NCBI GenBank assembly: GCA_963813815.1
Contig: CAWFAD010000009.1
Coordinates: forward strand, 6,851 to 70,850
Source of the DNA: an uncultured bacterium
GTDB lineage: Bacteria > Krumholzibacteriota > Krumholzibacteriia > Krumholzibacteriales > Krumholzibacteriaceae
Length of the DNA: 64,000 nucleotides
Direction: 5' to 3'
Every line of letters starts with the position of its first letter. Positions within the stretch are counted from its first letter, which is position 1. Below the pieces are notes generated by a model. That model did not search any database. It saw only the letters and a list, made by a program, of their open reading frames with translations, and had not been told where the DNA came from. The position numbers and the translations under genes are program-made. Positions 3,817 through 42,502 of the stretch are shown in pieces.

Positions 3817-3889
3817 TGATACGATCATTGTACGAGCAAGCGGCGGGCCGGAAAACGAAAAAAGCCGACACCCTCCGCCAGCTTAATCA

Positions 3890-3918: not shown

Positions 3919-3921
3919 TCG

Positions 3922-14360: not shown

Positions 14361-17300
14361 CTATCCGGCGGCCCGCTCCCGCCGGCCGGCCACGGTCACC
14401 CCGTCAAATATTGTATAGGCCACCGGAACGATGAAAAGCGTAAAGAAGGCCGAAATGACGACGCCGCCTATTTGCACGACGGCCATCGGAGCCCGGAACT
14501 CGTACCCCGCCGCGCCGCCCACGATCTGCGGAATCATTCCCACGACGATCGCGAGGTTTGCCATGATGATCGGCCGCAGCCTCGTCGAGCATGCCTCGAG
14601 GAGCGCCTCCTTGATCTTTTTCCCCTGCGAGCGCAGCTGAGCCGTGTAGTCGAGCATGAGAATGGCGTTGTTGACGACGATGCCGGTGAGCATCACGACC
14701 GACATGAGCGAGAAGATGTTGATCGTCTGGCCGGAGAAAAACAGCGACACGGCCACGCCGATGAGGGCGAGGGGCAGCGTGAGCATGATCGTCACCGGAT
14801 GCACGAAGCTTTCCATGATGGCGGCCATCACGATGTAGAGGAGCACGATCGCGAGCACGAGGGCCGTGAAGATCGAGGCGAACGATTCGTCCTGCATCTC
14901 GGACATTCCTCCGTGGCGGACCGTGACGTCGCGCGGCACGCCCATCTCCGCGAGCTCCGCGTCGAAAAGGGCGCGGACCTCGCTCAGGGAGCCGGCGGCG
15001 ATGTTCGCGTTGACCGTAACGAGCCGCTGTTTGCTCTTGTGCTGTATCTGCGACTCTCCCGAGCGGACGGCGAGGTCGCCGATCTCCGAGAGCGGCACGT
15101 CTCCCGAGGACGTGGCGACCGGCATGTCGGCGATGAACGCGGGGTCGGCCCTATCCGAGGCCGCGAACTTGACCCAGATCTCGTACTCCTCACCCTTCTC
15201 CCGGTACGCCCCCGCCTCGATCCCCTCGTACGCGGCCCGCATGAGGCCGCCCATGGCGGACGCGCTCACGCCGCGCTCGGCGAGATCGTTGCGCCGGGGC
15301 GTGACGGCGATCTCGGGCTTGCCCGCCTCCCGGCTCGACTGAACCTCGACGAGGCCGGGAATGCGGCGCATGATGCGATAGACGGAATCGGCGACCGCGT
15401 CGAGATGGCGTTGATCCGAGGAGAGCACTTCGATGACGAAATCCGCCTCGCCCCCGCCGGAGAAGCCCGTCTCGGTCGAGAGCCGGATATCGGCGTCGGG
15501 AATCCCCGCGAGCGCGGGGCGAAGGACGTTGAGGAACTCGGTCGCGTGGAGCGACCGGCGCTCGGGAGGAACGAGCTGGGCGATGATGTCGGCGTCCTCG
15601 ACGCCCCGCTGCTGGCCGCCGATCTTGACGACCGTCCCCTCGATCTCCGGACGGGAGGCGAGAACCTCCTCGACGAAAGCGGCGGCTTCCCGCGTGCGCT
15701 CGATGCTCGTTCCCGGCGGGAGCTCGAGGGTAATGATGACGACGTTCTGGTCGACGCGCGGTATGAACTCGCCGCCCACGAATCCGAAGAGCAAGAGGGC
15801 CCCGGCGAAGATGATCGCGGTGGCGAGAATCGGCCATCGGCGCCGGTCGAGAAACCGCCCGAGGACGCGGCGGTAGCGCGCGGAAAGGGCGTCGTAGAAG
15901 CCGTCCCACTTCCGGCAGAGCGTCGCGAACCGCCCGCAGGCCGCGCCGCTGCGCTCCTGCGCCTGCGGCTTGATGAGGCGCGCCGAGAGCATCGGAACGA
16001 TCGTGTAGCTCACGACGATGGAAAAGATCGTCGCGTAAACGACCGTGAGGCCGAACTGGACGAAGAACCTCCCGATGATGCCGCTCATGAACGCGATCGG
16101 CGTGAAGACGACGATGTTCGTGAGCGTCGAGGCCGCGACCGCCACGGCGACCTCGGAGGTTCCCTTGACGGCCGCCTCCTCGGGATCCATGCCGAGGTGG
16201 ACGTGCCGGGTGATGTTCTCGATGATGACGATCGAATTCGTCACGAGCGTCCCGATCGAAATGCCGAGTCCGAGGAGCGACATGACGTTGAGCGAGAACC
16301 CGGACCGCTCCATGAGGAGGAAGGTCGCCACCACGGAGACGGGCATCGAAAGCGCCGCGACGAGCGTCTGCTGCCAGTTGTGGAGAAAGATGAGGAGGAG
16401 GAGCGCCGTGAGCACGATTCCGATCATCACGTTGCCGAGCACGTCGCTCACGGCCGCCTTGACGAAGGGAGCGGAGTCGTTCGTGATCTTGACGTCGATG
16501 TCGTCATCGAGCGTTTTCCGCAGCTCGTCGAGGGCGGCGTACACGTCTTCGGCGACCTGAACGGTGTTGCCGTCGGACCGCTTGATGATCGAGAGCCCGA
16601 TGACCGATTTGCCGTTGTACGTGGACGACTCCCGGAGCTCCTCGACCGTATCGAGCACCTCCGCCACCTCCGAGAGCGGCACGGTGCCGCCCGAGCGGAG
16701 CGGCAGCCGGAGCCCGGCGATCTCGCCGGGGCTCGACACCTCGCCCATCATGCGGAGCGTGATCTCTCGGGGGCCCCGCGTGATGTGTCCAGCGGGAACG
16801 TTCACGTTCTCGGCGGCGATCGCGCCGACGACGTCGAGAAGGCTCAGACCGTACGCGCGCAGCTTCGCCGGCGAAACCTCGACGCGGATCTGACGCTCGC
16901 GCTTGCCGGTGACGTCGACCGAGGCCACGCCGTTCACGCGGCTGAGGCGCTCCCGGATCACCTTGTCCGCCACCCGGTAGATATCCTCGAGCGGGCGCGG
17001 CGCGGAGACGGCGATCTCGATAACGGGGTAGGCGCTGAAGTCGAACTTGCTGATGGCCGACGCTTCGGCGTTCTCCGGCATGTCGTACTGGATCGCGTCG
17101 ACCTTGTCCTTCACGTCGATCGCGTCGAGGTCGACGTTGGTCTCGAGCTCGAACTCGATGAAGACCTGCGAGAGGTTCTCCTGCGAGATCGAGGTGAGGG
17201 TCTTCACGTTGGCGATCGTCGAGACGGCGTCCTCGATCTTCTTCGTGACCTGCGTCTCGACCTCGCCCGGCGAGGCCCCCGGGTAAACCGTCGTGACGAT

Positions 17301-17435
17301 AACGAAGGGAAACTCGATGTTCGGCATGAGCTCGATCGGCATGCGCCCGTACGAATAGAGTCCGAGCACGATGAACGCGAGCGTGATCATCGTCGTGAGG
17401 ACCGGGCGCTTGACGAAGATGCGAATGATGTTCAT
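14361..17435 (-). CDS. RND (HAE1/AcrB-family) efflux transporter, inner-membrane pump
   Basis: 1024 aa; 12-TM AcrB architecture; N-terminus MNIIRIFVKRPVLTTMITLAFIVLGLYSY. Confidence 0.9.
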   Translation of the reverse strand: MNIIRIFVKRPVLTTMITLAFIVLGLYSYGRMPIELMPNIEFPFVIVTTVYPGASPGEVETQVTKKIEDAVSTIANVKTLTSISQENLSQVFIEFELETNVDLDAIDVKDKVDAIQYDMPENAEASAISKFDFSAYPVIEIAVSAPRPLEDIYRVADKVIRERLSRVNGVASVDVTGKRERQIRVEVSPAKLRAYGLSLLDVVGAIAAENVNVPAGHITRGPREITLRMMGEVSSPGEIAGLRLPLRSGGTVPLSEVAEVLDTVEELRESSTYNGKSVIGLSIIKRSDGNTVQVAEDVYAALDELRKTLDDDIDVKITNDSAPFVKAAVSDVLGNVMIGIVLTALLLLIFLHNWQQTLVAALSMPVSVVATFLLMERSGFSLNVMSLLGLGISIGTLVTNSIVIIENITRHVHLGMDPEEAAVKGTSEVAVAVAASTLTNIVVFTPIAFMSGIIGRFFVQFGLTVVYATIFSIVVSYTIVPMLSARLIKPQAQERSGAACGRFATLCRKWDGFYDALSARYRRVLGRFLDRRRWPILATAIIFAGALLLFGFVGGEFIPRVDQNVVIITLELPPGTSIERTREAAAFVEEVLASRPEIEGTVVKIGGQQRGVEDADIIAQLVPPERRSLHATEFLNVLRPALAGIPDADIRLSTETGFSGGGEADFVIEVLSSDQRHLDAVADSVYRIMRRIPGLVEVQSSREAGKPEIAVTPRRNDLAERGVSASAMGGLMRAAYEGIEAGAYREKGEEYEIWVKFAASDRADPAFIADMPVATSSGDVPLSEIGDLAVRSGESQIQHKSKQRLVTVNANIAAGSLSEVRALFDAELAEMGVPRDVTVRHGGMSEMQDESFASIFTALVLAIVLLYIVMAAIMESFVHPVTIMLTLPLALIGVAVSLFFSGQTINIFSLMSVVMLTGIVVNNAILMLDYTAQLRSQGKKIKEALLEACSTRLRPIIMANLAIVVGMIPQIVGGAAGYEFRAPMAVVQIGGVVISAFFTLFIVPVAYTIFDGVTVAGRRERAAG

Positions 17436-17436
17436 C

Positions 17437-18552
17437 CTACCGGCCCTCCCCGCCCTTGACGATCTTGACGAGGTCGCCGTCCTCGAGCATGGTCTGGCCG
17501 AAGAGCACGACGCGGTCGCCGGCGCTCACGCCCGATCTGATCTCGACTTCGTCGGTGGTGCGGAGCCCCGGTTGCACCGCCCGCAGGCGCGCCACGGAGC
17601 GGGAGCTGTCGTCCTGCGCCACGACGTACACGTGCGGCTCGCCCCGCACCTCGAACAGGCTTTCCGCGGGGACCTTCACGACGCCTCTCCGGAAACCCGC
17701 GAGAACGTCGAACGAGAGAAGAATCCCCGGCATGAGCTTGCCGTTCGCGTTCGGAAACGAGGCCTCGCCGCGGACGAGGTGGCTCTCCGGATCGGCCGCC
17801 AGATCGAGCTTGCTGACGATCCCCGAGCCGGAGGCGCCGTTCGACGCGGAGCGCCAGACGGCCTTCTGTCCCCGCGCGAGGATCATCGCCTGACGGCTGC
17901 CGGCCTCGAAGCTCACGCGCACCGAGTCGGTGCGGGCCACCCACATGAGCGGCGAATAGGCGGGCGCCATCTCCCCTTCCTTCACGAGCACGATCGTGAC
18001 GATCCCGGCGTGCGTCGCGAGCAGGCTCGTGCTCTGCCGGGCGTTCGAGAGATCGGTCTTCGCGACCGCGACCGCGAGCTCCGCCTTTTCGAGCGCCTGC
18101 TGCGACACGGCCCCTTCCTTGAAGAGGTTTCGCATTCTCTCGACGTCGGCGAGGGCGTCCTGATACACGGCGAGGGAACGGTCGTAGGAGTGGAGCATCG
18201 GATTGGGCGCCGCCGTCTCGAGGCGAATGAGCACGTCCCCCTTCTTCACGCGGTCCCCCTCCCGCTTCGGCACGCCGACGATCGTGATCGAGTTCGTGGA
18301 GATCACGGGGTACTGCAGCGAGCCTTCGACGGTGCCGGCGAGGGTCGTCCACGAATCGAGATCGCCCGCCGCGGCGACGACGACCTCGACCGGCTTCCCA
18401 TCGCGCGCCTGAATCTCGGTGATGCTCGCGTAGCTCTTTCGCTCGCCGATCTGCAGAAACCGCAGAACGAAGATCATTGCGATGACGGCGACCGCGGCCG
18501 GCGCCGCCCAGCGGGCGAGCCCTCGTTTTCCGCCTCTCGACCGTTCTTCCAT
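17437..18552 (-). CDS. RND efflux membrane fusion protein (HlyD/AcrA family periplasmic adaptor)
   Basis: N-terminal TM anchor; lipoyl-like KKGDVLIRLE; beta-barrel/MP domains; AAGGAAG RBS. The 620-aa ORF extends upstream in frame but starts at MEERSRGG. Confidence 0.85.
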   Translation of the reverse strand: MEERSRGGKRGLARWAAPAAVAVIAMIFVLRFLQIGERKSYASITEIQARDGKPVEVVVAAAGDLDSWTTLAGTVEGSLQYPVISTNSITIVGVPKREGDRVKKGDVLIRLETAAPNPMLHSYDRSLAVYQDALADVERMRNLFKEGAVSQQALEKAELAVAVAKTDLSNARQSTSLLATHAGIVTIVLVKEGEMAPAYSPLMWVARTDSVRVSFEAGSRQAMILARGQKAVWRSASNGASGSGIVSKLDLAADPESHLVRGEASFPNANGKLMPGILLSFDVLAGFRRGVVKVPAESLFEVRGEPHVYVVAQDDSSRSVARLRAVQPGLRTTDEVEIRSGVSAGDRVVLFGQTMLEDGDLVKIVKGGEGR

Positions 18553-18632
18553 TCCTATTCTTCCTTTCGATAATGCCGGTTCGGCTTTCTTGCCCGCCGG
18601 AAACCGGCTCTGTTCATCCGGTGCGTCCGGCC

Positions 18633-20033
18633 TCATTTCGGGCCGGCGAGAGCTTCCGTTCCGACGGCGAGCTCGAGATACGCCTCGGCCATGCGCGATG
18701 AAAAGAGCGCCTCGACGAGCTGGGCCCGCGCCGTCGTCATCGCGAGCTCGGCGTCGAGCCGCTCGAGCGGGGTGGCGAGCCCGTTCGTGAGCCGCACGAG
18801 GGCGATCCGGTAGGTCTCCTCGGCGAGCGCCACCGATTCCTCGCGCCCCTCGAGCGCCGAAAGGGCGTTCTCGAGATTGCGGTACGATTGCCGCACGGCG
18901 AGGTCCTTGTCCCGCGTGACGCGCTCGAGCTCGAGCTCCGCGCCGCGCAGGTCGGCCGCGGCTTTTCCGATCTTTCCCTTGGCGCTGAATCCGTCGAATA
19001 TCGGTATCTGAAATCCTATCTGAACCGCTGCGGACTTGGCGACGAGGTCCTGAGGCGGCAGCCATTCGTTCGACCACTGGGTCTGCACCGCGTAGTAGGC
19101 GTCGAGGCTCAGCATCGGGTAGCGGTCGGCCTTCGCGATGCGCAGAAACTGTTTCTCGGCGCCGACGGCGCTCCGCAGGGCCTGAATCTCGGGGCTCGAA
19201 GCGAGCATCGCCGCGAGCACGGCGTCGATCCCCGCCGGAGGCGCGCCCGCGGAGAGCGAGTCGGTGAGCGTCACGGCATCCCCCGCGTCGATGCCGCACC
19301 GGCGGCGCAGCGTGAGGAGCGCCTGATCGTAATCGTTTCGCGCCTTGACGAGGGGCGCCTTCCGGTTCGCGAGCTCGACTTCGGCGCGCAGCCTGTCGTA
19401 CCGGCTCACGACTCCCTCGTCGAACCCGACGCGCGCGATGCGCGCCGCCTCGGCGACCGTTTCGGAGGCCTTCTCCTCGATGCGAAGAAGCTCGGCGGCG
19501 AGGAGAACGCCGTAGTACGCCTCCTTGACGCTGAACCGCACGTAATCCGACGCCGCGCTCTCCCGGTACCGGGCCGAGGCCAGATAGTGCTTCGCGGCCT
19601 CGAGCCCCGCCGACACGCGCCCGGCCGCCCAGAGCACTTGGCTCACGGAAGCGGCGGCCTGAAAGTCGTTGTCTTCCCCGATCTCGATCTTGACGGAGCC
19701 CGAGCCCTCCCCGAAGAACGCGGCCGGAAGGAAGAACGATGGCCGCAGGAGATTGCGCCCGTACTGCCCGGAAACCGACAGGTGCGGCAAGGCGTTCGCC
19801 CGCGCTTCCATGACCTGCCCCTCGGCTCCCGCCACCGCCTGCGTCACCTGCCGGAGCATCTCGTCGTTCTGGATGCCGAGATCGATCGCCTTCTCGAGGC
19901 CGAGGCTCATCTCCCCGGCGCCCGCCGAGGAGGGGCCCGGCCCGGCGAGTATCGCGCCGCCGATGAGAAGCGCCGCCGCGGCGCGCAACGGGGCGCCCCG
20001 CAGGCCGCTACGGCCGCCTGCTGTCACCGTCAT
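18633..20033 (-). CDS. TolC-like outer membrane efflux protein (OMF family)
   Basis: Signal peptide; two OEP repeats with coiled-coil regions (LELERVTRDKDLAVRQSYRNLENALSALEG...). Confidence 0.8.
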   Translation of the reverse strand: MTVTAGGRSGLRGAPLRAAAALLIGGAILAGPGPSSAGAGEMSLGLEKAIDLGIQNDEMLRQVTQAVAGAEGQVMEARANALPHLSVSGQYGRNLLRPSFFLPAAFFGEGSGSVKIEIGEDNDFQAAASVSQVLWAAGRVSAGLEAAKHYLASARYRESAASDYVRFSVKEAYYGVLLAAELLRIEEKASETVAEAARIARVGFDEGVVSRYDRLRAEVELANRKAPLVKARNDYDQALLTLRRRCGIDAGDAVTLTDSLSAGAPPAGIDAVLAAMLASSPEIQALRSAVGAEKQFLRIAKADRYPMLSLDAYYAVQTQWSNEWLPPQDLVAKSAAVQIGFQIPIFDGFSAKGKIGKAAADLRGAELELERVTRDKDLAVRQSYRNLENALSALEGREESVALAEETYRIALVRLTNGLATPLERLDAELAMTTARAQLVEALFSSRMAEAYLELAVGTEALAGPK

Positions 20034-20037
20034 TTCG

Positions 20038-20718
20038 TCATTCCTTTCCCTGAAGTTCCGGCCGCCCAAGAAGCGGCTCGATGATCAAACGGTCTATGAC
20101 CCCCGGAACGTCGTCGAAGCACTCGACGTTCCGCCGCGTCATGTACAAGTGCAGTAGCTCGTGCACGGCGCCCACGAGGATGGCCGCGAGCACGGCGGGA
20201 TCCATGCGCCGGACATCCCCCCGCTCCATCGCCTTCTTGCAGAGAACCTCTATTGTTTCGCGGTTTCGCTCGATCTCGCCGCGAATGCTCCCTTCGAGGT
20301 ATATCGGGCACTCCTTCGTGTAGATCAGGAAAAAGTCGAGGTGCTTCTTGAAATGCCTGATCGCCGCCGCCAGCCGGCACCGGAGCTGCTCGACGGGAGG
20401 GTCGTCCGGACGACAGGAGGCGTCCCCCTCGCGGCGCATCTCCTCCACGTATGTCTCGAGGAGCTTCCGGAATATTTCCTCTTTGCCGGTGAAGTACGAG
20501 TAGAGCTTTCCCACGGACATGTCGGCCCGATCCGCAATGTCCTTCATGCTCGTTTTCTGATACCCCTGATGGCCGATCAGTTCAACGGCGGAGGCGAGAA
20601 TGATCTCCCGGCATCTTCGACGCTCGCGGTCTCGTCGCGTGCTGTGGCTATCATCCCCCGCATGGAGCGCGCCCGACTTCACGATAGATCCTCCGGGTTC
20701 GGCCGATACCGGCGCCAT
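20038..20718 (-). CDS. TetR/AcrR-family transcriptional regulator, likely repressor of the downstream OMF-MFP-RND operon
   Basis: HTH ILASAVELIGHQGYQKTSMKDIADRADMSVGKLYSYFTGKEEIF; 4 nt from the OMF start. Confidence 0.8.
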   Translation of the reverse strand: MAPVSAEPGGSIVKSGALHAGDDSHSTRRDRERRRCREIILASAVELIGHQGYQKTSMKDIADRADMSVGKLYSYFTGKEEIFRKLLETYVEEMRREGDASCRPDDPPVEQLRCRLAAAIRHFKKHLDFFLIYTKECPIYLEGSIRGEIERNRETIEVLCKKAMERGDVRRMDPAVLAAILVGAVHELLHLYMTRRNVECFDDVPGVIDRLIIEPLLGRPELQGKE

Positions 20719-20796
20719 GAATACAAATTCGAAATATGAATATACATTCTGAATCGTAGTACGCAAGCAAAATACCAGCGGAGCCCGAATGCGCCG

Positions 20797-20822
20797 AGGG
20801 CGATGGATCATGCTCCATCGCC
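20797..20822 (-). terminator. Strong hairpin (10-bp stem) downstream of the ankyrin-MBL gene, in the TetR promoter region
   Basis: GGGCGATGGA-tcatgc-TCCATCGCCC. Confidence 0.45.
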
Positions 20823-20882: not shown

Positions 20883-22814
20883 CTAAATACTCGACAGCTT
20901 GCCGTTCTTGTAGAGGAATCTGTCTCCCCGCGCCAGCGGAAGTCCCTGCGGCACGACGCACCCGGCCTTCCGCGCATCCCCCTCGAAGTCGTAGTAGCGC
21001 TTGCAGCTGCTGCCGCCGTGCATCGGAAAGATGCACTCGGGGCTCAGCTTGTTCACGGCGAAATAGACGCCTTTCTTGACGATCTCCTGATCGCCGAACC
21101 CGCACCCCGAGACGGGGAAGAACGCGAAATCGATCTCGCGGCCGAGCCCCGCGAGGTAATCGATCTCGGCGGCGTAGGCGCCGTCGACGTTGGCGTCGCG
21201 GTTATGATGGTCGCCCGAGTGCAGGAAGGTGACGCCGTCGACCGTGACGAGGAATCCGACGCCGGCGTCGGTCGAGCGGATCGCCGTCACGTCGATCCCG
21301 CCGATGCTCTTCGTTTGACGCGGATCGATGCGCTCGCACGCCACGTTCGTATCCGGCTCCTGCCCAAACACCCACGTGATGCCGTCGAGCCCCTCGTTCC
21401 ATTTGAAATTCGCCTTGTTGTAATGATCGACGTGCGACGTGTGCGAAACGAAAGCCGTCACCTTCTTGCCCCGCAGATCCCCGGGGTTGACGCAGCCGTT
21501 GAGAAGGCTCGGCGAATCGGGGGCGCGGCCGTCCTGAAAATAGTCGAAGATCATGACGTTGCTCTTCGTCTGCACGATCCAGCCGGAGTGACCCGTGTAG
21601 TATACGATCGCTTCTCCGTCGCCGAGCTTCTTCGAGAGGAGCGCGGCCGCCGAGGCTTCCTTGCCGGCGCCCTTTCCACCCTTCGCCTTGATGGCGCGCG
21701 CCACTGACGCGTTGCCGTGCCTCGCCGCGTAGTGGAGCGGCGTGTTTCCGAAGCGATCCTCGACGTTCAGGGACGCTCCCTTCTCGATGAGCAGCTCCGC
21801 GACGTCCCCATACCCCTTGGCCGCCGCCAGATGCAGCGCCGTGGCGCCGAAGTTGCCGTCGAGGGCGTCCATTTTCGCTCCCGCCGAAATGAGATATCGC
21901 GTTAAATCGGGGTTCCCCCGTTCGGCCGCGATGAGCAGAGGGGTGAGCCCCTCGTTGTTCACGAGATCGATCTCGCACCCTTTCTCCACGAGGAGCCGCG
22001 CGAGTTCGGCGCTGCCGCGATACGCGAGACGGTGCAGAGCGTTGTTGCCGAAAGGATCGACGCCTTTCGCGTCCGCTCCCCGCGCGAGGAGGAGCTCGAT
22101 GAGATCGCTCGATCCCGCGATCATGGACACCGCGAGCGGAGATTGACCGTTGTGGCTCGTTTCGTTCGGATCGGCGCCGTTGTCGAGGAGATAGGCGGCC
22201 ATCTCCGTCCGGCCGCGCATGGCGGCCGCTACGAGTGGCGTGTTGCCGAACTGATCGCAGCCGGCGGCGAGAGAAGCCCCATTCGACACGAGCTCCTTGA
22301 GGGCGGCGACGTCGCCGCGATAGCAGGCGAAATGAACGAGCGACGATCCCTGCGTCGTCCGGTCGTCGAGCTTTCCGCCCTTCGAGGCGAGATAGCGCAC
22401 CAGCTCGAACCTGCCGCGCGAACCGGCGAACAGCACGGCGGTCATGCCGTTATCGTCCTTCGAGTTTATATCGACCCCACGCGAGAGAATAAGATCCAAT
22501 ATCTCCCGGCTTTCGCCGCATGCCGCCAGATGCAACGCGTTGCTGTTCTCGTTGTCGCCGAGATTCGGGTCGGCGCCCCTGTCGAGAAGAAGACGCGCGG
22601 CCTCCACGTTGCCGATGATGATCGCCACGTGAAGCGGCGGGTTGCCGTCCGCGTCTTTGAGACCGAGAACGGATTTGTCGGCCGCGACGAGACGCTCGAT
22701 CGTCCCGACGTCCCCGAGGCGGACCGCCTCGTGGATCTCTCCCGCCATGAGCCCGGCGGCCGAGCCGAGAACGGCGAGAGCGAGCAAACATATACGCATG
22801 ATACGCATGGGCAC
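20883..22814 (-). CDS. Secreted ankyrin-repeat protein fused to a C-terminal metallo-beta-lactamase-fold hydrolase domain
   Basis: Signal peptide MRICLLALAVLGSAAG; about 10 ANK repeats (DADGNPPLHVAIIIGNVEAARLLLDRGADPN, etc.); MBL motifs SHTSHVDH and SGDHHNRD. Confidence 0.8.
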   Translation of the reverse strand: MPMRIMRICLLALAVLGSAAGLMAGEIHEAVRLGDVGTIERLVAADKSVLGLKDADGNPPLHVAIIIGNVEAARLLLDRGADPNLGDNENSNALHLAACGESREILDLILSRGVDINSKDDNGMTAVLFAGSRGRFELVRYLASKGGKLDDRTTQGSSLVHFACYRGDVAALKELVSNGASLAAGCDQFGNTPLVAAAMRGRTEMAAYLLDNGADPNETSHNGQSPLAVSMIAGSSDLIELLLARGADAKGVDPFGNNALHRLAYRGSAELARLLVEKGCEIDLVNNEGLTPLLIAAERGNPDLTRYLISAGAKMDALDGNFGATALHLAAAKGYGDVAELLIEKGASLNVEDRFGNTPLHYAARHGNASVARAIKAKGGKGAGKEASAAALLSKKLGDGEAIVYYTGHSGWIVQTKSNVMIFDYFQDGRAPDSPSLLNGCVNPGDLRGKKVTAFVSHTSHVDHYNKANFKWNEGLDGITWVFGQEPDTNVACERIDPRQTKSIGGIDVTAIRSTDAGVGFLVTVDGVTFLHSGDHHNRDANVDGAYAAEIDYLAGLGREIDFAFFPVSGCGFGDQEIVKKGVYFAVNKLSPECIFPMHGGSSCKRYYDFEGDARKAGCVVPQGLPLARGDRFLYKNGKLSSI

Positions 22815-22904
22815 CCCTTTCTTTATAAAGGGATATACGACGCGAGCTCACAAAAGTGCCGCGATACCTCAAAAATGAGGAAACAATTGTGGACGGTCGA
22901 GCGT

Positions 22905-22940
22905 ACTACTGTTAAGTTAGCGATAGTGTTAAATTAACAA
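22905..22940 (+). promoter_or_regulatory. Candidate PadR operator: inverted repeat TGTTAA-A-TTAACA with adjacent direct TGTTAAG copy
   Basis: ctGTTAAGttagcgatagTGTTAAaTTAACAat lies 20-55 nt upstream of the padR TTG start. Confidence 0.4.
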
Positions 22941-22960
22941 TATTCGGTGGAGGTGCGCAA

Positions 22961-23329: not shown

Positions 23330-24203
23330 GATTGGGGAGTACTTGGAAAGGCTCAAGGCCGCGCTCCGGGGAGCCGACCCGGCGACGATCCAGGACGCCC
23401 TCGCCGACGCCGAAGAGCATCTCACCTTGGCTGCGCAGCGGGAGAGCGCCGGCGGAGAGGCCCGCTCGTTCGAGGGAATCATCGCGGAATACGGATCGCC
23501 CGAGGAAATCGCCTCGGCCTATCGCGAGCTCGAGGCGAAAAGCCCCGTGCCGTTCCCGGCCATCGCGCCCGCCGCGAACGGCCGCTCCTTCTGGAAGAGG
23601 TTTTTCGGCGTCACCGTCGATCTGCGGGCGTACGCCGCGCTCATCTATCTCTTCGCGTCGATCGCGCTCGGCGTTCTCTACTTCACGATCGCCACGACGG
23701 GCGTCAGCCTGTCGCTCGGTCTCATCGTCCTCATCATAGGCGTTCCCTTCGCCGTCGGATTCCTCACCTCGGTGCGCGGGATAGCCGTCCTCGAGGGGCG
23801 CATCGTCGAGGTCCTCCTCGGCGTGCGCATGCCGCGATTGCCGGTATTTCTGCGGAAGGACCTCAAGTGGCATCAGAGAATCGGAAAGATCTTCTCCGAC
23901 AGGAGCACGTGGACCGCGCTGCTCTATCTCGTGCTCATGCTCCCCCTCGGGATCGTCTACTTCACGCTGGCGATCGTGCTGCTGACGATCTCCCTCGCCC
24001 TATTCGTTTCGCCATTCTACCTGTACGTGCTGGGGTTCCCGCTCTACGAGATGAACCGGTACGCGTACTTCCCTCCGGGATGGATGCTGCCGCTCTTCGT
24101 CGCGGCGGGGGCTCTCCTTTTCATCCTGACGCTCCATTTCGCGAAATGGCTCGGCGGAGTCCACGGCCGGTACGCGAAGGCGATGCTCGTGAAGACGGAA
24201 TAA
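23319..24203 (+). CDS. PadR-associated membrane protein (DUF1700/HAAS-like N-terminal helical domain plus multi-TM region)
   Basis: ATGA overlap with padR; N-terminus MNHEIGEYLERLKAALRGADPATIQDALADAEEHL typical of DUF1700; about 4 TM helices. Confidence 0.55.
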   Translation: MNHEIGEYLERLKAALRGADPATIQDALADAEEHLTLAAQRESAGGEARSFEGIIAEYGSPEEIASAYRELEAKSPVPFPAIAPAANGRSFWKRFFGVTVDLRAYAALIYLFASIALGVLYFTIATTGVSLSLGLIVLIIGVPFAVGFLTSVRGIAVLEGRIVEVLLGVRMPRLPVFLRKDLKWHQRIGKIFSDRSTWTALLYLVLMLPLGIVYFTLAIVLLTISLALFVSPFYLYVLGFPLYEMNRYAYFPPGWMLPLFVAAGALLFILTLHFAKWLGGVHGRYAKAMLVKTE

Positions 24204-24262
24204 AGGGCCTCCGCGACCCGCTCCGAATGCGGGCCGATAAATGGCATTCTGATCTCGGGAAA

Positions 24263-24277
24263 ATGGCATTTTGCCAT
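24263..24277 (+). promoter_or_regulatory. Perfect palindrome ATGGCA-ttt-TGCCAT upstream of GAF gene 1; preceded by direct repeat AAATGGCATT at 24237
   Basis: Visible in sequence, ~215 bp upstream of the sigma-54 -24 element; candidate enhancer/UAS. Confidence 0.35.
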
Positions 24278-24490
24278 GGGCGAGGGCGCTCAGGTCCGCG
24301 CGCGGGCGGGCCCGGGGCGGCGCCGCCCGCCGCAATCGACGGCGCCTTCGGGACCCCAAAGACGCAACCCATTGCCAATTAGTCAATTAGAGGCCAAAGC
24401 GGCGTCCGAGGGGACGCCGGGAAACGCTCCCCGCCGCGCGGGCCATCGTCCCGTCCGGCGGGGTCGCGGCCCGGCGTTTCGAACCATTCT

Positions 24491-24505
24491 TGGCACCAGT
24501 GTTGC
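24491..24505 (+). promoter_or_regulatory. Sigma-54 (RpoN) promoter, -24/-12: TGGCACcagtgTTGC
   Basis: Exact match to the TGGCAC-N5-TTGC consensus, ~50 nt upstream of the GAF gene 1 start. Confidence 0.75.
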
Positions 24506-24567
24506 GTTCACCGTTCATTGGAGGCAACACGGGCCGCCCACCGGGGCGCGGCGCCGGTTGAATAACC

Positions 24568-25503
24568 ATGAATGAACCGCTTTCGAGGAACGGGGATTGC
24601 ATTCCGATGCCGGAAAGTCATGACGCCGAAGGCGTGGATTCCGGCGACGCTCCGCGGATCTCGCGGAGCCGGCAGCTCTATAGCAGCATCTGGCACAACT
24701 GGCTCATGCTCATCTCGGTGATGTGCATCTCGACGTTCGGTCTCGTCGCCGCGATCCCGCCGCTTCTCGGCGGGCCGGCCGCGACGGAGTGGCCGTGGGC
24801 GATGACCGATCGATTCCTGCTCGTCGCGCTCTCTCTCCTCGTGCTGGGGGCCGCCGCATACCTCACCCGTCATCAGCGGCGCATCATAGAGCTCCACCGC
24901 GAGCTCACTATCCTCCGCGAGGATTCGGACAAGCTGATCCGCCAGCATACGACGAGGCTCTTCGCGCTCTCGAGCATCAATCGCATGATCAGCGTCGAAA
25001 CGGACCTCCAGAAGGTCTTCGACCGAATCACCAAGATGTGCGTCGAGAACTTCAACTGCCATCGAGCCTCGCTCATGTTGCACGACGCGGACGGCGGCGA
25101 CCTGATCATCCGATCGGTATGCGGCCAATCGAACGCTGGCATGCTGAACACCCGGCAACGAATTGGAGACGGGATCGCCGGATATGCCGCCGAGCGTCGC
25201 AAATCGGTGCTCATCTCGAGACCGGCCGATTCGACCCGATACTCCGGCCTCGAGCTCAAGGACCCCTCCCTCACTTCCGCCATGGTCGTTCCGATCGTCG
25301 TTCGGGATGAGCTCGTCGGCGTCATCAATGTCAGCAGCCGTTCGGCCGATACCGTCTACGACGATAACGACCTCCTCATGCTCGAGGCCTTCGCCTCGTG
25401 CGCCGGCGCATGCATCCGGCATACGGAGCATGTGAACTGGATGCGGCACATGGTGCCGCAGCTCTGCGGCGAGGTGGGCGACGACGCGGCGCGGGAGAGA
25501 TGA
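24568..25503 (+). CDS. Membrane-anchored GAF-domain protein (2 TM + GAF, no output domain), paralog 1
   Basis: TM helices WHNWLMLISVMCISTFGLVAAIPPLL and LLVALSLLVLGAAAYL; GAF core ...RIGDGIAGYAAERRKSVLIS...MVVPIVVRDELVGVINVSS. Confidence 0.75.
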   Translation: MNEPLSRNGDCIPMPESHDAEGVDSGDAPRISRSRQLYSSIWHNWLMLISVMCISTFGLVAAIPPLLGGPAATEWPWAMTDRFLLVALSLLVLGAAAYLTRHQRRIIELHRELTILREDSDKLIRQHTTRLFALSSINRMISVETDLQKVFDRITKMCVENFNCHRASLMLHDADGGDLIIRSVCGQSNAGMLNTRQRIGDGIAGYAAERRKSVLISRPADSTRYSGLELKDPSLTSAMVVPIVVRDELVGVINVSSRSADTVYDDNDLLMLEAFASCAGACIRHTEHVNWMRHMVPQLCGEVGDDAARER

Positions 25504-25597
25504 TCGCCCGGCCGGCGCCGACGAACCCGTCGATGATCGTTCCGCGAGCAACCGTCTCGGGCCCCCCGCGCATGGCGGCATTCCGACCGAAGGCGAA

Positions 25598-25610
25598 TGG
25601 CAATTTGCCA
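25598..25610 (+). promoter_or_regulatory. Palindrome TGGCA-att-TGCCA (same TGGCA-N3-TGCCA core as 24264-24276)
   Basis: Visible in sequence, in the 740-bp intergenic region between the two GAF paralogs. Confidence 0.3.
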
Positions 25611-26168
25611 GAAAGAACCGCGCGTCGCGACTCGCGGACCGGGCGCAAGGGTGCTCGGACCGGCGCGATCCAAGAATTCGCGGCGGCCGATAGCGGCGCG
25701 CTGTCGTCTCCCGTGGACGACAAACGGCGACACCCCGCGAGACTGCCATGGAAACCGCGCGCCGAAGCACCGATGCCGCACGGGAAGGCGGGCGACCCAT
25801 CCGAGCGGATGCACGAGCGATGAAAGAGCCTTCCGTATACGCGGAATCGAGGATCGTACCGCCGCGGATAGGGGCGCGCCGGGCGCCATTCATGGGTTGA
25901 TAGACCTGTGTTTCATGCTCGTCCTCGTGTCAACGGCCGCGACGCGAATTATTTGACGATATATTGGGCGATTGTTCCCGACTATTCCGCATACGTCCCC
26001 CGATTGTAAAGAGCCGGCGACACTCTCGACATACCTGTAAACGAATCCGGTGCCGAACCGTTGACAAGGGCCCTAAAACAGGGCGGCGGACAGTCAAGAA
26101 ACGCCGACGCTCCGCGCCGTTTGCGCCTCGCCCCGACCGCGCGGCGGCGCCGGGCCGCGGGCCGCCTT

Positions 26169-26183
26169 TGGCACCAGTGTTGC
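26169..26183 (+). promoter_or_regulatory. Sigma-54 promoter, second copy: TGGCACcagtgTTGC
   Basis: Identical 15-mer to 24491-24505, ~62 nt upstream of the GAF gene 2 start. Confidence 0.75.
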
Positions 26184-26245
26184 GTTTGCCGTCCGTCGGA
26201 GGCGACACGGGCCGCCCGCTGCGGCGCGGCAACGGTTGGAGAACG

Positions 26246-27184
26246 ATGAACGAGTCGATTTCGAGGGATACGGAACGCACGGCCATGACGCAGGACGATC
26301 ACGCCGGCGGCGGCGGGGGATGCGGCGACGCGCCGCAGAACGCGCGGAGCCGTCAGCTCTATCGCAGCATCTGGCACAACTGGCTCATGCTCGCGTCCGT
26401 GCTGTGCATATCGACGTTCGGCCTCGCCGCCGCGATCCCGCCTCTCCTCAGCGGGGAAGGGGTGACGCGGTGGCCGTGGGGGATAACCGATCGAGCGCTG
26501 CTCGTGGCGCTCTCGCTCCTCGTCATCGCGGCCGTCGCCTACCTCACCGATCAGCAGAGGCGCGTCATCGCGATGCACGGCGAGATCACCATTCTCCGCG
26601 AGGAGTCGGACAGGCGGATTCGCCAGCATACGACGAGACTCTTCGCGCTTTCGAACATCAGCCGCATGATCAGCGTCGAAACGGACCTTCACAATATCTT
26701 CGATCGAATCACCCGGATGTGCGTCGAGACCTTCAGCTGCTATCGGGCCTCGCTCATGCTGTACGACGCCAAACGCGAAGACCTCGCCGTCCGATCGGTG
26801 TGCGGGCACTCGGACGCGGGAATACTGAACGCACGGCAGCGGATCGGGGAGGGGATCGCTGGCTATGCCGCCAAGCGTCGCGAACCGATACTCCTCTCCG
26901 GCCCTGCCGATTCGACCCGATACCCCGGTCTCGAGCTCAAGGATCCGTCCCTGACCTCCGCCATGGTCGTGCCGATCATCGTCCGGGACGAGCTCGTCGG
27001 GGTTCTCAACGTGAGCAGCCGCTCTCCGGAGGTCGTCTACGACAAGAACGACCTCCTCGCCCTCGAGGGCTTCGCCTCGAGCGCCGGCGCCTGCATCCGG
27101 CATACCGAGCACGTGAACTGGATGCGGCACATGGTGCCGCAGCTCTGCGGCGAGGGGCGAGGCGACCCGGCGCGGACGCGCTGA
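26246..27184 (+). CDS. Membrane-anchored GAF-domain protein, paralog 2 (~80% identical to paralog 1)
   Basis: Same architecture and near-identical C-terminus (...CIRHTEHVNWMRHMVPQLCGE); preceded by the same CGGTTG..ATGAA leader. Confidence 0.75.
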   Translation: MNESISRDTERTAMTQDDHAGGGGGCGDAPQNARSRQLYRSIWHNWLMLASVLCISTFGLAAAIPPLLSGEGVTRWPWGITDRALLVALSLLVIAAVAYLTDQQRRVIAMHGEITILREESDRRIRQHTTRLFALSNISRMISVETDLHNIFDRITRMCVETFSCYRASLMLYDAKREDLAVRSVCGHSDAGILNARQRIGEGIAGYAAKRREPILLSGPADSTRYPGLELKDPSLTSAMVVPIIVRDELVGVLNVSSRSPEVVYDKNDLLALEGFASSAGACIRHTEHVNWMRHMVPQLCGEGRGDPARTR

Positions 27185-27282
27185 TCGCCGGGCCCGGCGG
27201 CGCGCGCCGGACGAAATTACCGATTACGCGGGAGCATTGGAAACCACACTCCTCCCTGCCGCCCCCGAACGACGCGGGAAGC

Positions 27283-27326
27283 GGCAGGGATCTCCCGCTT
27301 TTGGCGGCAGGGATTTCCCGCTTTTG
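27283..27326 (+). repeat. Tandem direct repeat (2 x ~22 bp) GGCAGGGATYTCCCGCTTTTG, each unit with an internal GGGA-N2-TCCC dyad and T-run (terminator-like)
   Basis: Visible in sequence ~100 nt downstream of the GAF gene 2 stop. Confidence 0.5.
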
Positions 27327-27452
27327 ACGGCCGCCCGATTTTTCCCCGCAGCGCCGCGCATTCTCCGTTGACAGCTCGATCGGTTTACCTTTCAATGAAG
27401 GCGGGGCAATGGATCATCCCATTCGGCGCGGCCCGCAGGCCGCGAAGGGACC

Positions 27453-28262
27453 GTGCGGATCTTCGATTTCGAAAGAATCGCGCGAAGCGACCGCACCGCG
27501 GAGCGGTATCTCCTCGACTCAATCGTCAAGACGGGCCCCATCGCCTGTCCCCAATGCCGGGCGGAGAAGCTGTACGCCATCGAGGGCGGAGCGCGCCGCA
27601 GATGCGTCCGTTGCGGACACTCGTTTCATCCATGGAACGGCCGCTGGATCGGCGAGGTGAAGATCTCCGCGAAAAAATGGCTCTGGATAGTGAAGTTCTT
27701 CGAGCTCGAGATGCCCGCATCGAAAATCAGCGCTGAAACCGGCGTCAGCTATCCCACCTGCCTCAAGGCTCTCAACGTCGTCAGACGATCTCTCGCCGCT
27801 CCCGCCGCGGACGAGGTGCTCGACCGCTCTCCGGCGGCCGGAACCGAGCCGGTCATCGGCACGCTCGAGACCCGCGACGGCGGCGCCGAGATTTATGGAG
27901 CCGTTTCGCCGGAGGCCATCCGGTGCATTCTGCGGATGGCCGGCGGCTACCTCGTCGCGGTCGATCGCTCGCTCGCCTACGCGAGCATGCACTACCGCGG
28001 GCAGGAGCTCGCGATCGTCGACAAGGGCGATAGATTCCCGTTCTGGCGCGTGTACTGCTCGGGCAAGCCGGGCGTCTGGCATGCCGCGAAGACCGGCCTC
28101 GTCCGGCACCACGGCGTCTCCGGCGCGAAGCTTCCGCTCTACATCCGGGAGATGGAGTTCCGGTACCTCAACCGCCACCGAGACCTCTTTGACCTCATCG
28201 TGGAGCGGATCTGCGGCCCCGCGGCGCCGGCGGACCGGAGTTTGGCTTTGATTTCGGTCTGA
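27453..28262 (+). CDS. IS1595-family (ISXO2-like) transposase-like protein, probably degenerate/truncated (GTG start)
   Basis: N-terminal transposase zinc-ribbon CPQCRAEKLYAIEGGARRRCVRCGH followed by HTH-like KKWLWIVKFFELEMPASKISAETGVSYPTCLKAL; DDE region weak (IGTLETRDGG instead of VEIDETYIGG); 269 aa. Confidence 0.5.
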   Translation: MRIFDFERIARSDRTAERYLLDSIVKTGPIACPQCRAEKLYAIEGGARRRCVRCGHSFHPWNGRWIGEVKISAKKWLWIVKFFELEMPASKISAETGVSYPTCLKALNVVRRSLAAPAADEVLDRSPAAGTEPVIGTLETRDGGAEIYGAVSPEAIRCILRMAGGYLVAVDRSLAYASMHYRGQELAIVDKGDRFPFWRVYCSGKPGVWHAAKTGLVRHHGVSGAKLPLYIREMEFRYLNRHRDLFDLIVERICGPAAPADRSLALISV

Positions 28263-38216: not shown

Positions 38217-39410
38217 ATGAAAAGACCCGTCGTTATCATCCCGCTCGTCATCCTCGCCGCCGCGCTCGCCGTGCGCATCGGCTTCTTTCTGGCCAAGGGC
38301 TCCGGGGACGCGGGGAGAGGCGAGCTTCCTCCCGTGGCGGTCGAGGTGGACAGCGTCCGTTTCGGGCCCATCGAAGAGGTCCGCGAGTTCACCGGGTCCG
38401 TCTTTCCCTACAACCAATATATCGTCGCGCCGAAGGTGTCCGGGCGCCTCGTCGAGATCCGCAAGCGCATCGGCGATAGAGTTCGCGCGGGCGAGCTCAT
38501 CGCCCGCATCGACGACGCCGAGTTCCTGCAGGCTCTCCGGGAGGCCGAGGCGAACCTCAAGATCGCGGTGGCCTCGGTCGCCGAGGCCGAGAGCCAGCTC
38601 GAGCTCGCGAGGGATCAGAAGGAGCGGATGGAATCGCTCAGCGAGAAGGACCTCGCCTCCTCCGCCGAGCTCGACGCGGCGCTCACCGATTTCGCGGCGA
38701 AGCGGTCGCGCCACGAGCTCTCCCGCGCGCAGGTGGAGCAGCGCGAGGCGGCGCGCGAGGCGGCGCGCATCCGTCTCGGGTACACGAGGCTCTCCGCGAC
38801 GCGGGCCGGATACGTCGGCGAGAGGTTCGTCGACGAAGGGGCGCTCCTCGCTCCGAACGCCGCCATCGTTTCCGTCATCGAGATCGGCTCGGTGATCGTG
38901 CGGACCGCCGTCACCGAGCGGGATTACCGCCTCGTGAAACCGGGGCAGACCGCGGAGGTGCTCGTCGAAGCTCTTCCCGAGCGGACCTTTGCGGGGCGCG
39001 TCTCCCGCATAGCTCCGATGCTCCGGGAGACCTCCCGCATGGCCGAGCTCGAGGTGGAGGTCCCGAACGCCGGGCTCCTCCTCAAACCGGGCATGTTCGC
39101 GCGGATTCGAGTCATGATCGCCTCGCGCGACAGGGCGCAGGTCGTCCCGAGCCGGTCCGTCGTGAGCACCGCCGCGGGAACCGGGCTCTTCGTCGTTCGC
39201 GACGGCGAGAGCGTGGCCCGCTTCGTTCCGGCCGAGATCGGAATCGCGACGCCGGATCTCGTCGAGGTCGTCTCCCCCGTGCTCGACGGGCGCGTGGTCA
39301 CCCTCGGGCAGCACCTCCTCGCCGACGGCAGCCCCGTGCTGCTCCCCGGAGGCTCGCCGGCCGGCGCGGGAGCCCCCGATGCGCCGGAGGGCGAGAAGGC
39401 GGGCCGATGA
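38217..39410 (+). CDS. RND efflux membrane fusion protein (HlyD/AcrA family), second system
   Basis: TM anchor; lipoyl motif; coiled coil; overlaps the downstream RND start by 4 nt. Confidence 0.85.
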
Positions 39411-42400
39411 ACCTCGCGCGGGGACCGATCGAGCGTCCCATCCTCACGGCGATCATCTACCTCGTCGTCATCACGCTCGGCATCGTTTCGTGGAGCCGCC
39501 TCTCGATCGACCTCATGCCCGAGGTCACCTACCCCACGATCTCCGTCATCACGAGCTACGGCAACGTCGGCCCCGAGGAGATGGAGGAGTCGGTCACCCG
39601 GCCGATCGAGGAAGCGCTCGCGGCGGTGCAAGGAGTGGAGGAGATCACGTCGGTCTCCACCGAGGGAACGAGCCAGGTGCGGGTCTCCTTCTCGTGGGGA
39701 ACCGACCTCGACGTCGCGGCGAACGACATCCGCGACCGCATCGACCGCGTGCTCGGGCAGCTCCCCGAGGACATCACGCGCCCGATGATCCGCAAGTTCG
39801 ACCTCTCAGCGTTTCCGATCATGATGATCGGGCTCTCGGGCGATTTGAACCCCCTCGACCTGCGGCGCATCGCCGAGGATCAGGTGAAATACCGCCTCGA
39901 GCGCGTGCCCGGGGTGGCCTCCGTCGACATACGGGGCGGCCTCTACCGCGAGATCCACGTCAACCTGCGCGCCGCCAAGCTCAAGGCGATCGGCATTTCG
40001 ACGGAAGCGGTCCTCGCCGCGCTCCGGAACGAAAACCGCAACGTCCCGGCCGGGCTCTACGAGCAGGGGAACCTCGAGGTCCTCGTGCGGACGCAGGGCG
40101 AGTACCGCGATCTCGACGAGATCCGCAACACGGTCGTCGCCATGCGCGGGGGCTCGCCGGTCCGCGTCGGGGACATCGCGAGCGTCGAGGACTCATGGGA
40201 GGAGGTCCGCCAGATCGTCCGCATCGACGGACGCCCGGGGCTTCGCGTGTCGGTGAGCAAGCAGTCCGGAGCCAACACGGTCGCCGTCGCCGAGGGCGTG
40301 CGCGCCGAGATCGCCCGCATCAACCGCGACATCCCGCAGCTCGAACTCACCCCCCTCATGGACAGCTCGACGTACATCGAGCGATCGATCGGCAACACGG
40401 GCCTGACGCTCCTTCTCGGCGGAGCGCTCGCGATTCTCATACTCTTTCTCTTTCTCCGCAACGTGTCGAGCACGCTCATCATATCGACCGCCATTCCCAT
40501 CTCGATCATCGCCACCTTCGCTCTCATGTACTTCGGCGGCTTCACGCTCAACATCATCACCTTCGGCGGCCTCGCGCTCGGCATCGGCATGCTCGTCGAC
40601 AACGCGATCGTCGTGCTCGAGAACATCTACCGGCACCGCGAGGCGGGCGCCTCGCCCGTTCAGAGCGCGATGGACGGCACGGCCGAGGTCTGGTCGGCCA
40701 TCCTCGCGAGCACGCTGACGACGCTCGTCGTCTTTTTTCCCGTCGTCTTCATCCGCGGCATGTCGGGGATCATGTTTCAACAGATGGCGCTCGTCGTGAG
40801 CTTTTCGCTCCTCTGCTCGCTCATCGTGGCGCTCACGCTCGTCCCGATGCTCGCCTCCCGCTTTCTCCGGTTCCAGAGCGCCGAGCACTACCGGAACGAG
40901 AGCCGCCTCCACCGCGTCTACGCGCGGAGCGAGGAGACGTTCCGCCGCGTCGAGGAGCTCTACTCGCGGCTCCTCACCTGGGCGCTCGGACGCAAGCGCC
41001 TCGTGGTGTTCGCCATGTTCGGCCTCTTCGCGCTCTCCCTCGTGCTCATCCGGTTCGTCGGCGTCGAGCTCATGCCCGCGGCGGACGAGGGCGAGGTGCG
41101 CGTCAGCCTCGAGATGGCGGTCGGCACCAAGCTCGCGCTCATGGACGAGACGACGCGCGCGGTCGAGGATATCATCCGGGAGAAGGTGCCCGAGATGACC
41201 TCCATCGTTTCCTTCGCCGGAAGCGGCGGGTGGGGCGCCTCGGGGGGCCACACGGCCGAGATCCGCATGAGCCTCGCGCCGCGCGGCGAGCGGAGGCGCA
41301 GCAGCGAGCAGGTGGCGAACGATCTGCGGCGCGCGCTCGCCGGTCTACCCGGGGTCACGGTCCGCACGAGGGCGGGGCAGGGGCTCTTCATCCTCCGCAT
41401 GGGCGCCCAGTCGCAAACCGCGCTCACGCTCGAGGTCCGCGGCTACGACCTCGAGACGGCGCACGCGCTCGCGCGGCGGGTGAACGAGGTCGTCGGCGGC
41501 GTCCGGGGCATCACCGATACGCGGATCAGCCGCGAGGAGGGAAACCCCGAGCGCACCGTGCGGATCAATCGCGCCAAGGCCGCCGATCTCGGGCTCGGCG
41601 TCTCGCGCGTCGGCGACGCCCTCGAGACGGCCGTCGGCGGCACCCGCGCCTCCATCTTCCGCGAGGGCGGCAAGCAGTACAACATCCTGCTGCGGCTCGC
41701 CGAGGAAGACCGCAAGAGCCTCGGCGACATTCTCGATCTCACCGTCGTCAACAGCCGCGGCGAGCCCGTCGTGCTCCGCAACGTCGTCGAGGCCGAGCAG
41801 GACGAGGGTCCCGTCCGGATCGAGCGAAAGGACCAGGAGCGCATCATCACGATCGAGGCGAACTACACCGGCCGCGACATGGGCTCGATCATCCGCGACG
41901 TTCGGCGCGAGCTGCGCGCGGTGCCGGTGCCGAAGGATTTCGCGGTTCTTTTCGGCGGCGACTACGAAGAGCAGCAGAAGGCCTTCCGCGAGCTCCTCAC
42001 CGGCCTCGTGCTCGCCATTTTCCTCGTCTACATGGTCATGGCGGGACAATTCGAGTCGTGGCGCGACCCGCTCGTCGTGCTCTTCTCGATACCGATGGCG
42101 GTCATCGGCGTCACGATCGTCATGATACTCACCGGCACCATCTTCAGCATGCAGGCCTTCATCGGGTGCATCATGCTCGCCGGCATCGTCGTCAACAACG
42201 CGATCCTGCTCGTCGACTACACGAACCGGCTCCGCCGCATCGACGGGATGGAGCTCGACGAGGCGATACGCACGGCCGGATCGCGGCGCCTCCGCCCCAT
42301 CCTCATGACCACCCTCACGACGGTTCTCGGCCTTCTCCCCCTCTCCTTCGGCCTCGGCGAGGGAGGCGAGGCGCAGGCGCCTCTCGCCCGCGTCGTGATC

Positions 42401-42502
42401 GGAGGGCTTCTCAGCTCCTCGCTCATCACCCTCGTGCTCGTGCCCGTCGTGTACGCGGTTTTCGAGAAGAGACTCAAGCGGAAATCGAACGTCGGATCGT
42501 AA
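39407..42502 (+). CDS. RND (AcrB/HAE1-family) efflux transporter, second system (no adjacent OMF)
   Basis: 1031 aa, typical AcrB TM/porter topology. Confidence 0.9.

Follow-up and report, generated by a model that had tools for sequence, protein, structure and literature searches.

In Staphylococcus carnosus, the LuxR-type NreB–NreC system is modulated by NreA, a nitrate-binding, stand-alone GAF protein. In intramembrane-sensing kinases of the LiaS/BceS type, a very short outer loop links two transmembrane (TM) helices and the functional part is cytoplasmic, and PgaD is the two-TM partner of the poly-N-acetylglucosamine (PNAG) synthase. On the transcriptional side, the Vibrio qrr promoters are associated with sites for LuxO, a bacterial enhancer-binding protein (bEBP) whose target, TTGCA-N3-TGCAA, is a precedent for a dyad of 5-N3-5 geometry (PMC3352281). 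These systems bear on a locus in a 64-kb stretch of DNA (contig CAWFAD010000009.1; the whole stretch is referred to as the window) from an uncultured member of the Krumholzibacteriaceae. The locus encodes two tandem paralogues, W1 and W2, each composed of two TM helices and a GAF domain (TM-GAF) and each preceded by a sigma-54-type (-24/-12) promoter sequence. We consider it probable, with moderate confidence, that these are sigma-54-driven, lineage-specific tandem copies of a family of ~300-residue inner-membrane GAF sensors that likely serve as ligand-sensing adaptors.

The two genes are positioned on the + strand at 24568–25503 (W1, 311 amino acids (aa) from the first ATG) and 26246–27184 (W2, 312 aa), bearing out the tandem duplication recognized in a preliminary description of the sequence. 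Both probably begin at the second methionine codon (24607 in W1 and the alternative start 26285 in W2), because Met14 of each protein aligns with Met1 of the orthologues and W1 is recorded in this form in a public protein collection (P0001, 298 aa). The proteins are 72% identical, lower than the ~80% first given for them; nucleotide identity of the coding sequences is 81%, and 70% at four-fold degenerate sites. The two genes are 742 bp apart, and gaps of 364 bp and 268 bp lie 5' of W1 and 3' of W2, respectively, a small correction to the long intergenic regions (740 and 270 bp) reported earlier. Searches of the 742-bp gap with four GerE-type proteins (tblastn) gave no hidden open reading frame (ORF) or pseudogenized GerE gene, and no conserved ORF was found there, tblastx of the orthologous gaps returning only nucleotide-level matches in several frames and on both strands.

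An identical 19-mer, TTGGCACCAGTGTTGCGTT, lies 77 nt 5' of each paralogue, at 24489–24507 (P1) and 26167–26185 (P2) on the + strand. The exact 15-mer TGGCACCAGTGTTGC noted previously before both genes is present at 24491 and 26169, and the identity reaches 19 nt. All 10 core positions of the -24/-12 consensus are matched, with GG (-24) and GC (-12) exactly 10 nt apart; relative to the extended consensus YTGGCACG-N4-TTGCW there are two flank mismatches (C for G and G for W), and the label of a perfect sigma-54 promoter therefore holds for the core and not for these flanking positions. The pattern TGGCAC-N5-TTGC has two matches in the window, where 0.01 would be expected by chance, and both are P1 and P2. 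In an ungapped comparison anchored on the promoters, the 19 identical nucleotides are followed by ~80% identity through the ATG and beyond, and similarity collapses directly upstream. No sigma-70-type promoter was detected on the + strand of positions 24150–27500, and no intrinsic terminator was called on this strand around W1 and W2.

Homologues were collected by a scan of species-representative genomes from Krumholzibacteriia and Latescibacteria assemblies (L001–L012, 34–41% identity), by exact-protein look-ups of closer relatives (L034–L046) and by a metagenome scan (L047–L059). Across 31 family loci (583 kb, both strands), GG-N10-GC sites were scored for matches to TGGCAC-N5-TTGCW, with a score of at least 10 as the cut-off and scores of 8–9 taken as weaker matches. 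Twenty-five sites reach the cut-off: 15 sit 55–160 nt upstream of a family gene, 4 precede a neighbouring polysaccharide operon, 1 drives a LuxR + GAF operon (L004), and the residual background is 5 sites, or ~0.003 per 350 nt. High-scoring sites occur in 16 of the 31 loci and sites scoring 8–9 at the same place in 7 more. A GG-N10-GC element thus occupies the matching position ahead of the homologue in 23 of the 31 loci, which come from assemblies of Krumholzibacteriota and Latescibacteria. The spacers vary (CAGTG, CGGGG, CGCGG, CGCGA, GCTAC, ACAAC, ATAAC, TCTCG and ATTCC, among others), and GG, GC and the distance between them are constant; this combination of a free spacer with a fixed distance is the signature of a -24/-12 promoter. 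The original promoter call is upheld by this conservation of position and spacing before homologues in two candidate phyla, and the assignment of P1 and P2 as putative sigma-54-dependent promoters is strongly supported by the comparison.

The gene order of the window recurs in L034 (GCA_002403075.1) and L037, where genes for PadR and a HAAS/Sensor membrane protein are followed by a gap of 720–830 bp and a single GAF gene, and beyond it by an IS1595-like gene (adjoining in L034, several kb on in L037), DAGK and DHODH. Because these syntenic relatives hold one copy, the duplication is lineage-specific, and a neighbour-joining tree places W1 and W2 as a pair. Identity to the single-copy orthologues is 63–69% for W1 compared with 72–79% for W2, which marks W1 as the copy that has evolved faster. 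The leaders of W1 and W2 are also ~80% identical, about equal to the coding sequence. The leader had been described as conserved; it is instead a by-product of the duplication and not an RNA element, as its sequence is not conserved in the orthologues and no structure is shared across them (consensus energy -1.8 kcal/mol). Rfam gave no credible match for it, and a structured leader or riboswitch was rejected on these grounds. Part of the leader may be coding.

Alignment and pairwise blastn comparison of the regions upstream of W2 and of its orthologues in L034, L037, L039 and L041 reveal three conserved islands only, in GC-rich segments of 700–900 bp that are otherwise unalignable: a distal island containing a palindrome, a 19-bp block and the promoter. 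The distal island of gene 1 (24242–24277, + strand) consists of the half-site TGGCATTCTG (24242–24251) and the palindrome ATGGCA-TTT-TGCCAT (24263–24277), and that of gene 2 (25576–25610, + strand) of the half-site CGGCATTCCG (25576–25585) and the palindrome TGGCAA-T-TTGCCA (25598–25610). Apart from the promoter and leader, this island is the sole block common to the W1 and W2 upstream regions (blastn, 76% over 34 nt). The TGGCA-N3-TGCCA palindromes singled out in the preliminary description are the only two in the window (24264 and 25598, where 0.02 would be expected), and their conservation extends to the relatives. The palindrome-bearing sequence is TGGCATTTTGCCA in W1, TGGCAATTTGCCA in W2, CGGCAAATTGCCA in both L034 and L037, AGGCAATTTGTCA in L039 and AGGCAATTGACCA in L041. 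The palindrome is conserved as GGCAA-W-TTGCCA, usually with a GCATTCYG-like half-site upstream, and judged from this alignment it is under selection. The metagenome scan returned only distant family members (35–44% identity) and so added no close orthologues for footprinting of the palindrome.

The palindrome centre is 565, 556, 558, 570 and 565 bp from TGGCAC in W2, L034, L037, L039 and L041, respectively, and 221 bp from it in W1, where ~340 bp have been lost between two conserved elements; W2 keeps the ancestral long region. This move from ~565 to 221 bp suggests that the palindrome may work at variable distance, as enhancers do. The 19-bp proximal block, which had been overlooked, is located at 24372–24390 (TTGCCAATTAGTCAATTAG) and 26050–26068 (GTGCCGAACCGTTGACAAG) on the + strand, in each case 119 bp upstream of TGGCAC. 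Its consensus is TGCC(A/G)R...T.TT.AYAAG, and its spacing from the promoter is confined to 118–120 bp in all six sequences, those of W1, W2 and the four relatives (individual values of 119, 119, 119, 120, 118 and 119 bp), a canonical distance for an activator site, for which ~80–200 bp upstream of the promoter would be expected. The block bears only a loose resemblance, on the reverse strand, to the IHF consensus WATCAA-N4-TTR. Together, the palindrome and the -119 block are candidate control sites. The arrangement resembles that of the Vibrio qrr promoters and LuxO sites (consensus sequences in PMC3352281) in the exact spacing of -24 GG and -12 GC, the upstream 5-N3-5 dyad and the predicted need for an activator encoded elsewhere. 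It differs in the sequence of the dyad (TGGCA-N3-TGCCA), in its distance of ~560 bp compared with ~100–150 bp, and in the additional non-dyad block fixed at -119. A literature search for a regulator that binds TGGCA-N3-TGCCA returned nothing relevant.

Both palindromes in the window lie 60–95 nt after a same-strand stop codon, as do those of L034 and L037, which would be expected if they were 3'-end or terminator hairpins of the preceding genes. We regard this as very improbable: the stem is 5–6 bp with an A/T-rich centre and no U-tract, the terminator scan was negative, and in L039 and L041 the island follows no gene. In these two loci the upstream neighbour is a divergent TetR/RND (resistance-nodulation-division) operon and not the HAAS gene. 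The palindrome therefore belongs to the GAF gene, since the island is kept there beside the divergent TetR gene.

Alternatively, the palindrome, and possibly the -119 block, could be the operator of a conventional regulator of the LuxR/GerE, PadR or IS1595-like zinc-ribbon/helix-turn-helix (HTH) type rather than a sigma-54 enhancer. bEBP sites do not typically lie as far away as 556–570 bp, GerE-type partners are encoded repeatedly next to the family gene, and PadR-HAAS adjoins in every palindrome-bearing locus. An IS1595-like gene is present in the window at 27453–28262 (+ strand), with orthologues at 4471–5280 in L034, 10906–11769 in L037, from 16222 in L041, 13826–14803 (- strand) in L045 and ~3813–4565 (- strand) in L004. 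These are 38–64% identical and lie 0.2–7 kb from the TM-GAF gene in six lineages. The protein scores 33 bits, far short of the transposase family cut-off of 75. The gene thus has the look of a conserved, domesticated one and not of a mobile element, and its product could be a regulator. The PadR-HAAS/Sensor operon has a conserved TTGAC-type promoter (window 22890–22960; also in L034, L037, L039 and L041) that is overlapped by TGTTAAG repeats, which in the window form the palindrome TGTTAAATTAACA, a probable PadR auto-operator. PadR as the binder of GGCAA-N-TTGCC is weakened as a candidate, because its own promoter bears this different motif, an argument of limited weight. The palindrome is retained in the window, L034 and L037 although no GerE gene adjoins there, and the 5-N3-5 geometry fits a known type of bEBP site, that of LuxO (PMC3352281). 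On balance an operator of this kind is possible, and we think it more doubtful than likely.

If a separate sigma-54 promoter drives each copy, as P1 and P2 would predict, expression would need RpoN together with an ATP-dependent enhancer-binding protein whose gene lies beyond the window, and we infer that the source genome contains rpoN. A search of Krumholzibacteriota literature for sigma-54 gave nothing relevant. The class Krumholzibacteriia does include a typical bEBP: locus L006 encodes one with XylR_N, V4R, Sigma54_activat and HTH_8 domains (Sigma54_activat E = 5e-68). A sigma-54-type site at position 3966 (- strand) of this locus, AGGCACACCCCTTGCA, faces the gene divergent from the XylR_N/V4R-type activator. 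L006 thus contains a textbook activator–target pair beside a TM-GAF homologue that has no sigma-54 site of its own. This bEBP was considered as the activator of the family and is unlikely to be so; because the local site faces the divergent gene, it more likely serves that neighbour.

Several observations weigh against sigma-54 control of W1 and W2 through these elements and against a partner-dependent role for their products. At the thresholds used, 8 of the 31 family loci have no sigma-54-like site. The window contains no RpoN box, and, as the preliminary description had stated, it encodes no enhancer-binding protein, a result obtained with GAFTGA and Walker A motifs in all six frames and by tblastn with the bEBP of a relative. 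The proximal block has no obvious dyad symmetry, the palindrome at 556–570 bp is unusually far upstream for an activator site, and no evidence ties it to a bEBP over another regulator. Finally, no LuxR-type or kinase partner gene is found beside the TM-GAF genes in the window or in the closest relatives, so the partner model developed below is transferred from more distant homologues.

The encoded proteins match only GAF models in Pfam (GAF_2, E ~ 1e-17, residues ~145–284), and the GAF profile (PF13185/PF01590) scores 65 bits against gathering cut-offs of 28.6 and 22.4. In the AlphaFold2 model (pLDDT 84), helix 28–62 contains TM1 and is followed by a 67-residue helix (77–143) in which TM2 continues into a linker, the GAF fold (147–257) and a 45-residue C-terminal helix (266–310). 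The two TM helices are joined by an outer loop of ~15 aa with an invariant WPW motif. The C-terminal helix is conserved (ACIRHTEHxxWMR), and its I-R-H-x-E and W/R positions are invariant. Both TM helices are bordered at their cytoplasmic ends by Arg-rich segments, and the sequence is therefore read as placing the GAF domain and the N-terminus in the cytoplasm. The two TM helices and GAF domain without an output domain, proposed from the first inspection, are a property of all full-length relatives (234–400 aa): the 120 proteins listed among 202 matches in the protein database are GAF-only (234–398 aa), and a search of 1.8 billion representatives gave full-length members of 255–400 aa, none with a fused output domain. 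All family members found come from assemblies of Krumholzibacteriota or of Latescibacteria type.

Among solved structures, the nearest are ordinary small-molecule GAF domains, those of PtsP, Lcd1 with cAMP, an HD-GYP protein, Nlh1 and free methionine-R-sulfoxide reductase (fRMsr), and the closest by sequence (5w10) binds cAMP. The best NCBIfam match is the GAF region of NifA (E = 2.8e-10), and Aquifex Nlh1 is among the PDB sequence matches. This likeness to sigma-54 activators is confined to the GAF domain, as the family proteins have no AAA+ or HTH domain and their GAF domain is tethered to the membrane. With NreA they share a GAF domain free of an output domain; NreA acts by protein–protein contact, and its pathway has a LuxR-type regulator at the end. 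NreA is soluble and has ~150 aa, and the two were compared at the level of the GAF fold. The family proteins are membrane-anchored, with a long helical linker, a conserved C-terminal helix and predicted sigma-54 control. The two TM helices with a very short outer loop and a cytoplasmic functional part recall LiaS/BceS-type kinases and PgaD. In contrast to the former, the family has no kinase domain.

Many homologues are labelled 'putative methionine-R-sulfoxide reductase with GAF domain' by JGI, and fRMsr structures are among the fold matches. An fRMsr enzyme is rejected as an identity for the family, and we give it hardly any credence, because the three catalytic Cys of E. coli fRMsr align with non-Cys residues in a profile alignment (with a manually entered reference sequence), and the only invariant Cys, C158, is away from the catalytic positions. 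In addition, fRMsr is not known to have a membrane anchor or a sigma-54 promoter.

Candidate partners for the TM-GAF protein come from the neighbourhoods of relatives. In L039 and L041 the TM-GAF gene overlaps by 4 nt a gene whose 160-aa product carries a GerE/LuxR HTH at its C-terminus and lacks a receiver domain, and a GerE-type gene adjoins the TM-GAF gene in L043, L002, L004 and L008. In L045 the 4-nt overlap is with a gene for a soluble hybrid kinase of PAS-GAF-PAS architecture, and genes for Hpt and REC-GGDEF proteins come next. In 11 loci the TM-GAF gene directly follows PgaC-like, TPR/PgaA-like and PgaB-like genes, with an SDR gene opposite. Four of these 11 PNAG-type loci have a second sigma-54-type promoter, GGGCAC(A/G)GGCATTGCA (L001 1238, L007 1452, L009 623, L012 946), ~70–90 nt before a two-TM ORF of ~130 aa that heads the operon in the PgaD position and that Pfam does not recognize as PgaD. 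The PNAG-like cluster of these Latescibacteria-type genomes thus appears to be sigma-54-dependent too. These neighbourhoods fit the proposal, as outlined in PMC3162934, that sigma-54 governs the cell exterior, and they support, without proving, a sensor-adaptor function connected with the control of surface polysaccharide or biofilm.

The same loci raise a second possibility, that TM-GAF proteins of the wider family regulate a PNAG-type synthase post-translationally, as nucleotide-sensing accessory subunits similar to PgaD, and are not adaptors linked to transcription. The position of the gene directly after the PNAG-type genes in 11 loci, the separate sigma-54-type promoters of gene and operon, the two TM helices as in PgaD, the binding of cAMP by the closest solved GAF domain and the coupling of the gene to a GGDEF relay in L045 would all accord with such a subunit. 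We nevertheless find it rather improbable. The 64-kb window contains no PgaC-like gene, W1 and W2 have no Pfam PgaD match, the PNAG-type loci already hold a separate ORF at the PgaD position, and in other lineages the gene is accompanied by HTH or kinase genes instead.

We therefore return to the sensor-adaptor account. From the neighbourhoods and the architecture, the TM-GAF protein would most likely be a dimeric, ligand-sensing membrane adaptor whose state is passed through its helices to a partner regulator. In relatives, the partner could be the overlapping receiver-less LuxR/GerE HTH protein or the soluble hybrid histidine kinase with its Hpt and REC-GGDEF relay. The promoter would be controlled through the -119 block (118–120 bp) and the distal palindrome GGCAA-W-TTGCCA as candidate sites, and in a large clade the gene lies after a PNAG-like exopolysaccharide operon with a sigma-54-type promoter of its own. 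The LuxR and kinase partners and the PNAG-like operon point to control of the cell surface or of biofilm formation. A more far-reaching version is an undescribed two-protein system of Krumholzibacteriota and Latescibacteria, in which a membrane GAF sensor would act via its C-terminal helix on a LuxR-type regulator that has no receiver (or on a soluble kinase/GGDEF relay); the module as a whole would be sigma-54-gated through a palindromic enhancer at ~560 bp and a -119 element, and would be wired to production of a PNAG-type exopolysaccharide. We offer this version as a speculation that is unlikely to hold in full.

Other features of the window and its relatives surround this module. The sequence just past the W2 stop codon (27253–27326, + strand) contains a 10-bp inverted repeat, TCCCTGCCGC/GCGGCAGGGA, and then GCGGCAGGGATYTCCCGCTTTTG twice in tandem; these repeats, which were not called in the terminator scan, are possibly a 3' end or terminator element. 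Two RND efflux systems, with AcrB-type pumps and membrane-fusion and outer-membrane partners, are encoded at 14361–20811 (- strand) and 38217–42502 (+ strand), the former region including a TetR regulator at 20038–20811. A TetR gene borders the TM-GAF upstream region in L039 and L041, next to an AT-rich palindrome, TTCAGAATATGAATTCAGATTCTGAATAT, that is probably the TetR operator. At 20883–22814 (- strand), the window also encodes a 643-aa secreted-looking protein with many ankyrin repeats and a metallo-beta-lactamase-fold domain, which is conserved in L037 (671 aa).

The locus reveals no new principle of regulation, and its value is mainly that of an annotated entry point to an ordinary to moderately interesting module in phyla that have received little study. 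The candidate phyla of the FCB group have hardly been explored for sigma-54 regulons, and a protein family that retains its predicted sigma-54 promoter over deep divergence provides a comparatively validated case. The two sharply bounded upstream elements, together with the natural deletion variant upstream of W1, form a ready system for finding the activator and its site. The recurrent pairings with a LuxR-type solo protein, a kinase/GGDEF relay and a PNAG-like operon give candidate partners for what would be a GAF-only membrane sensor.

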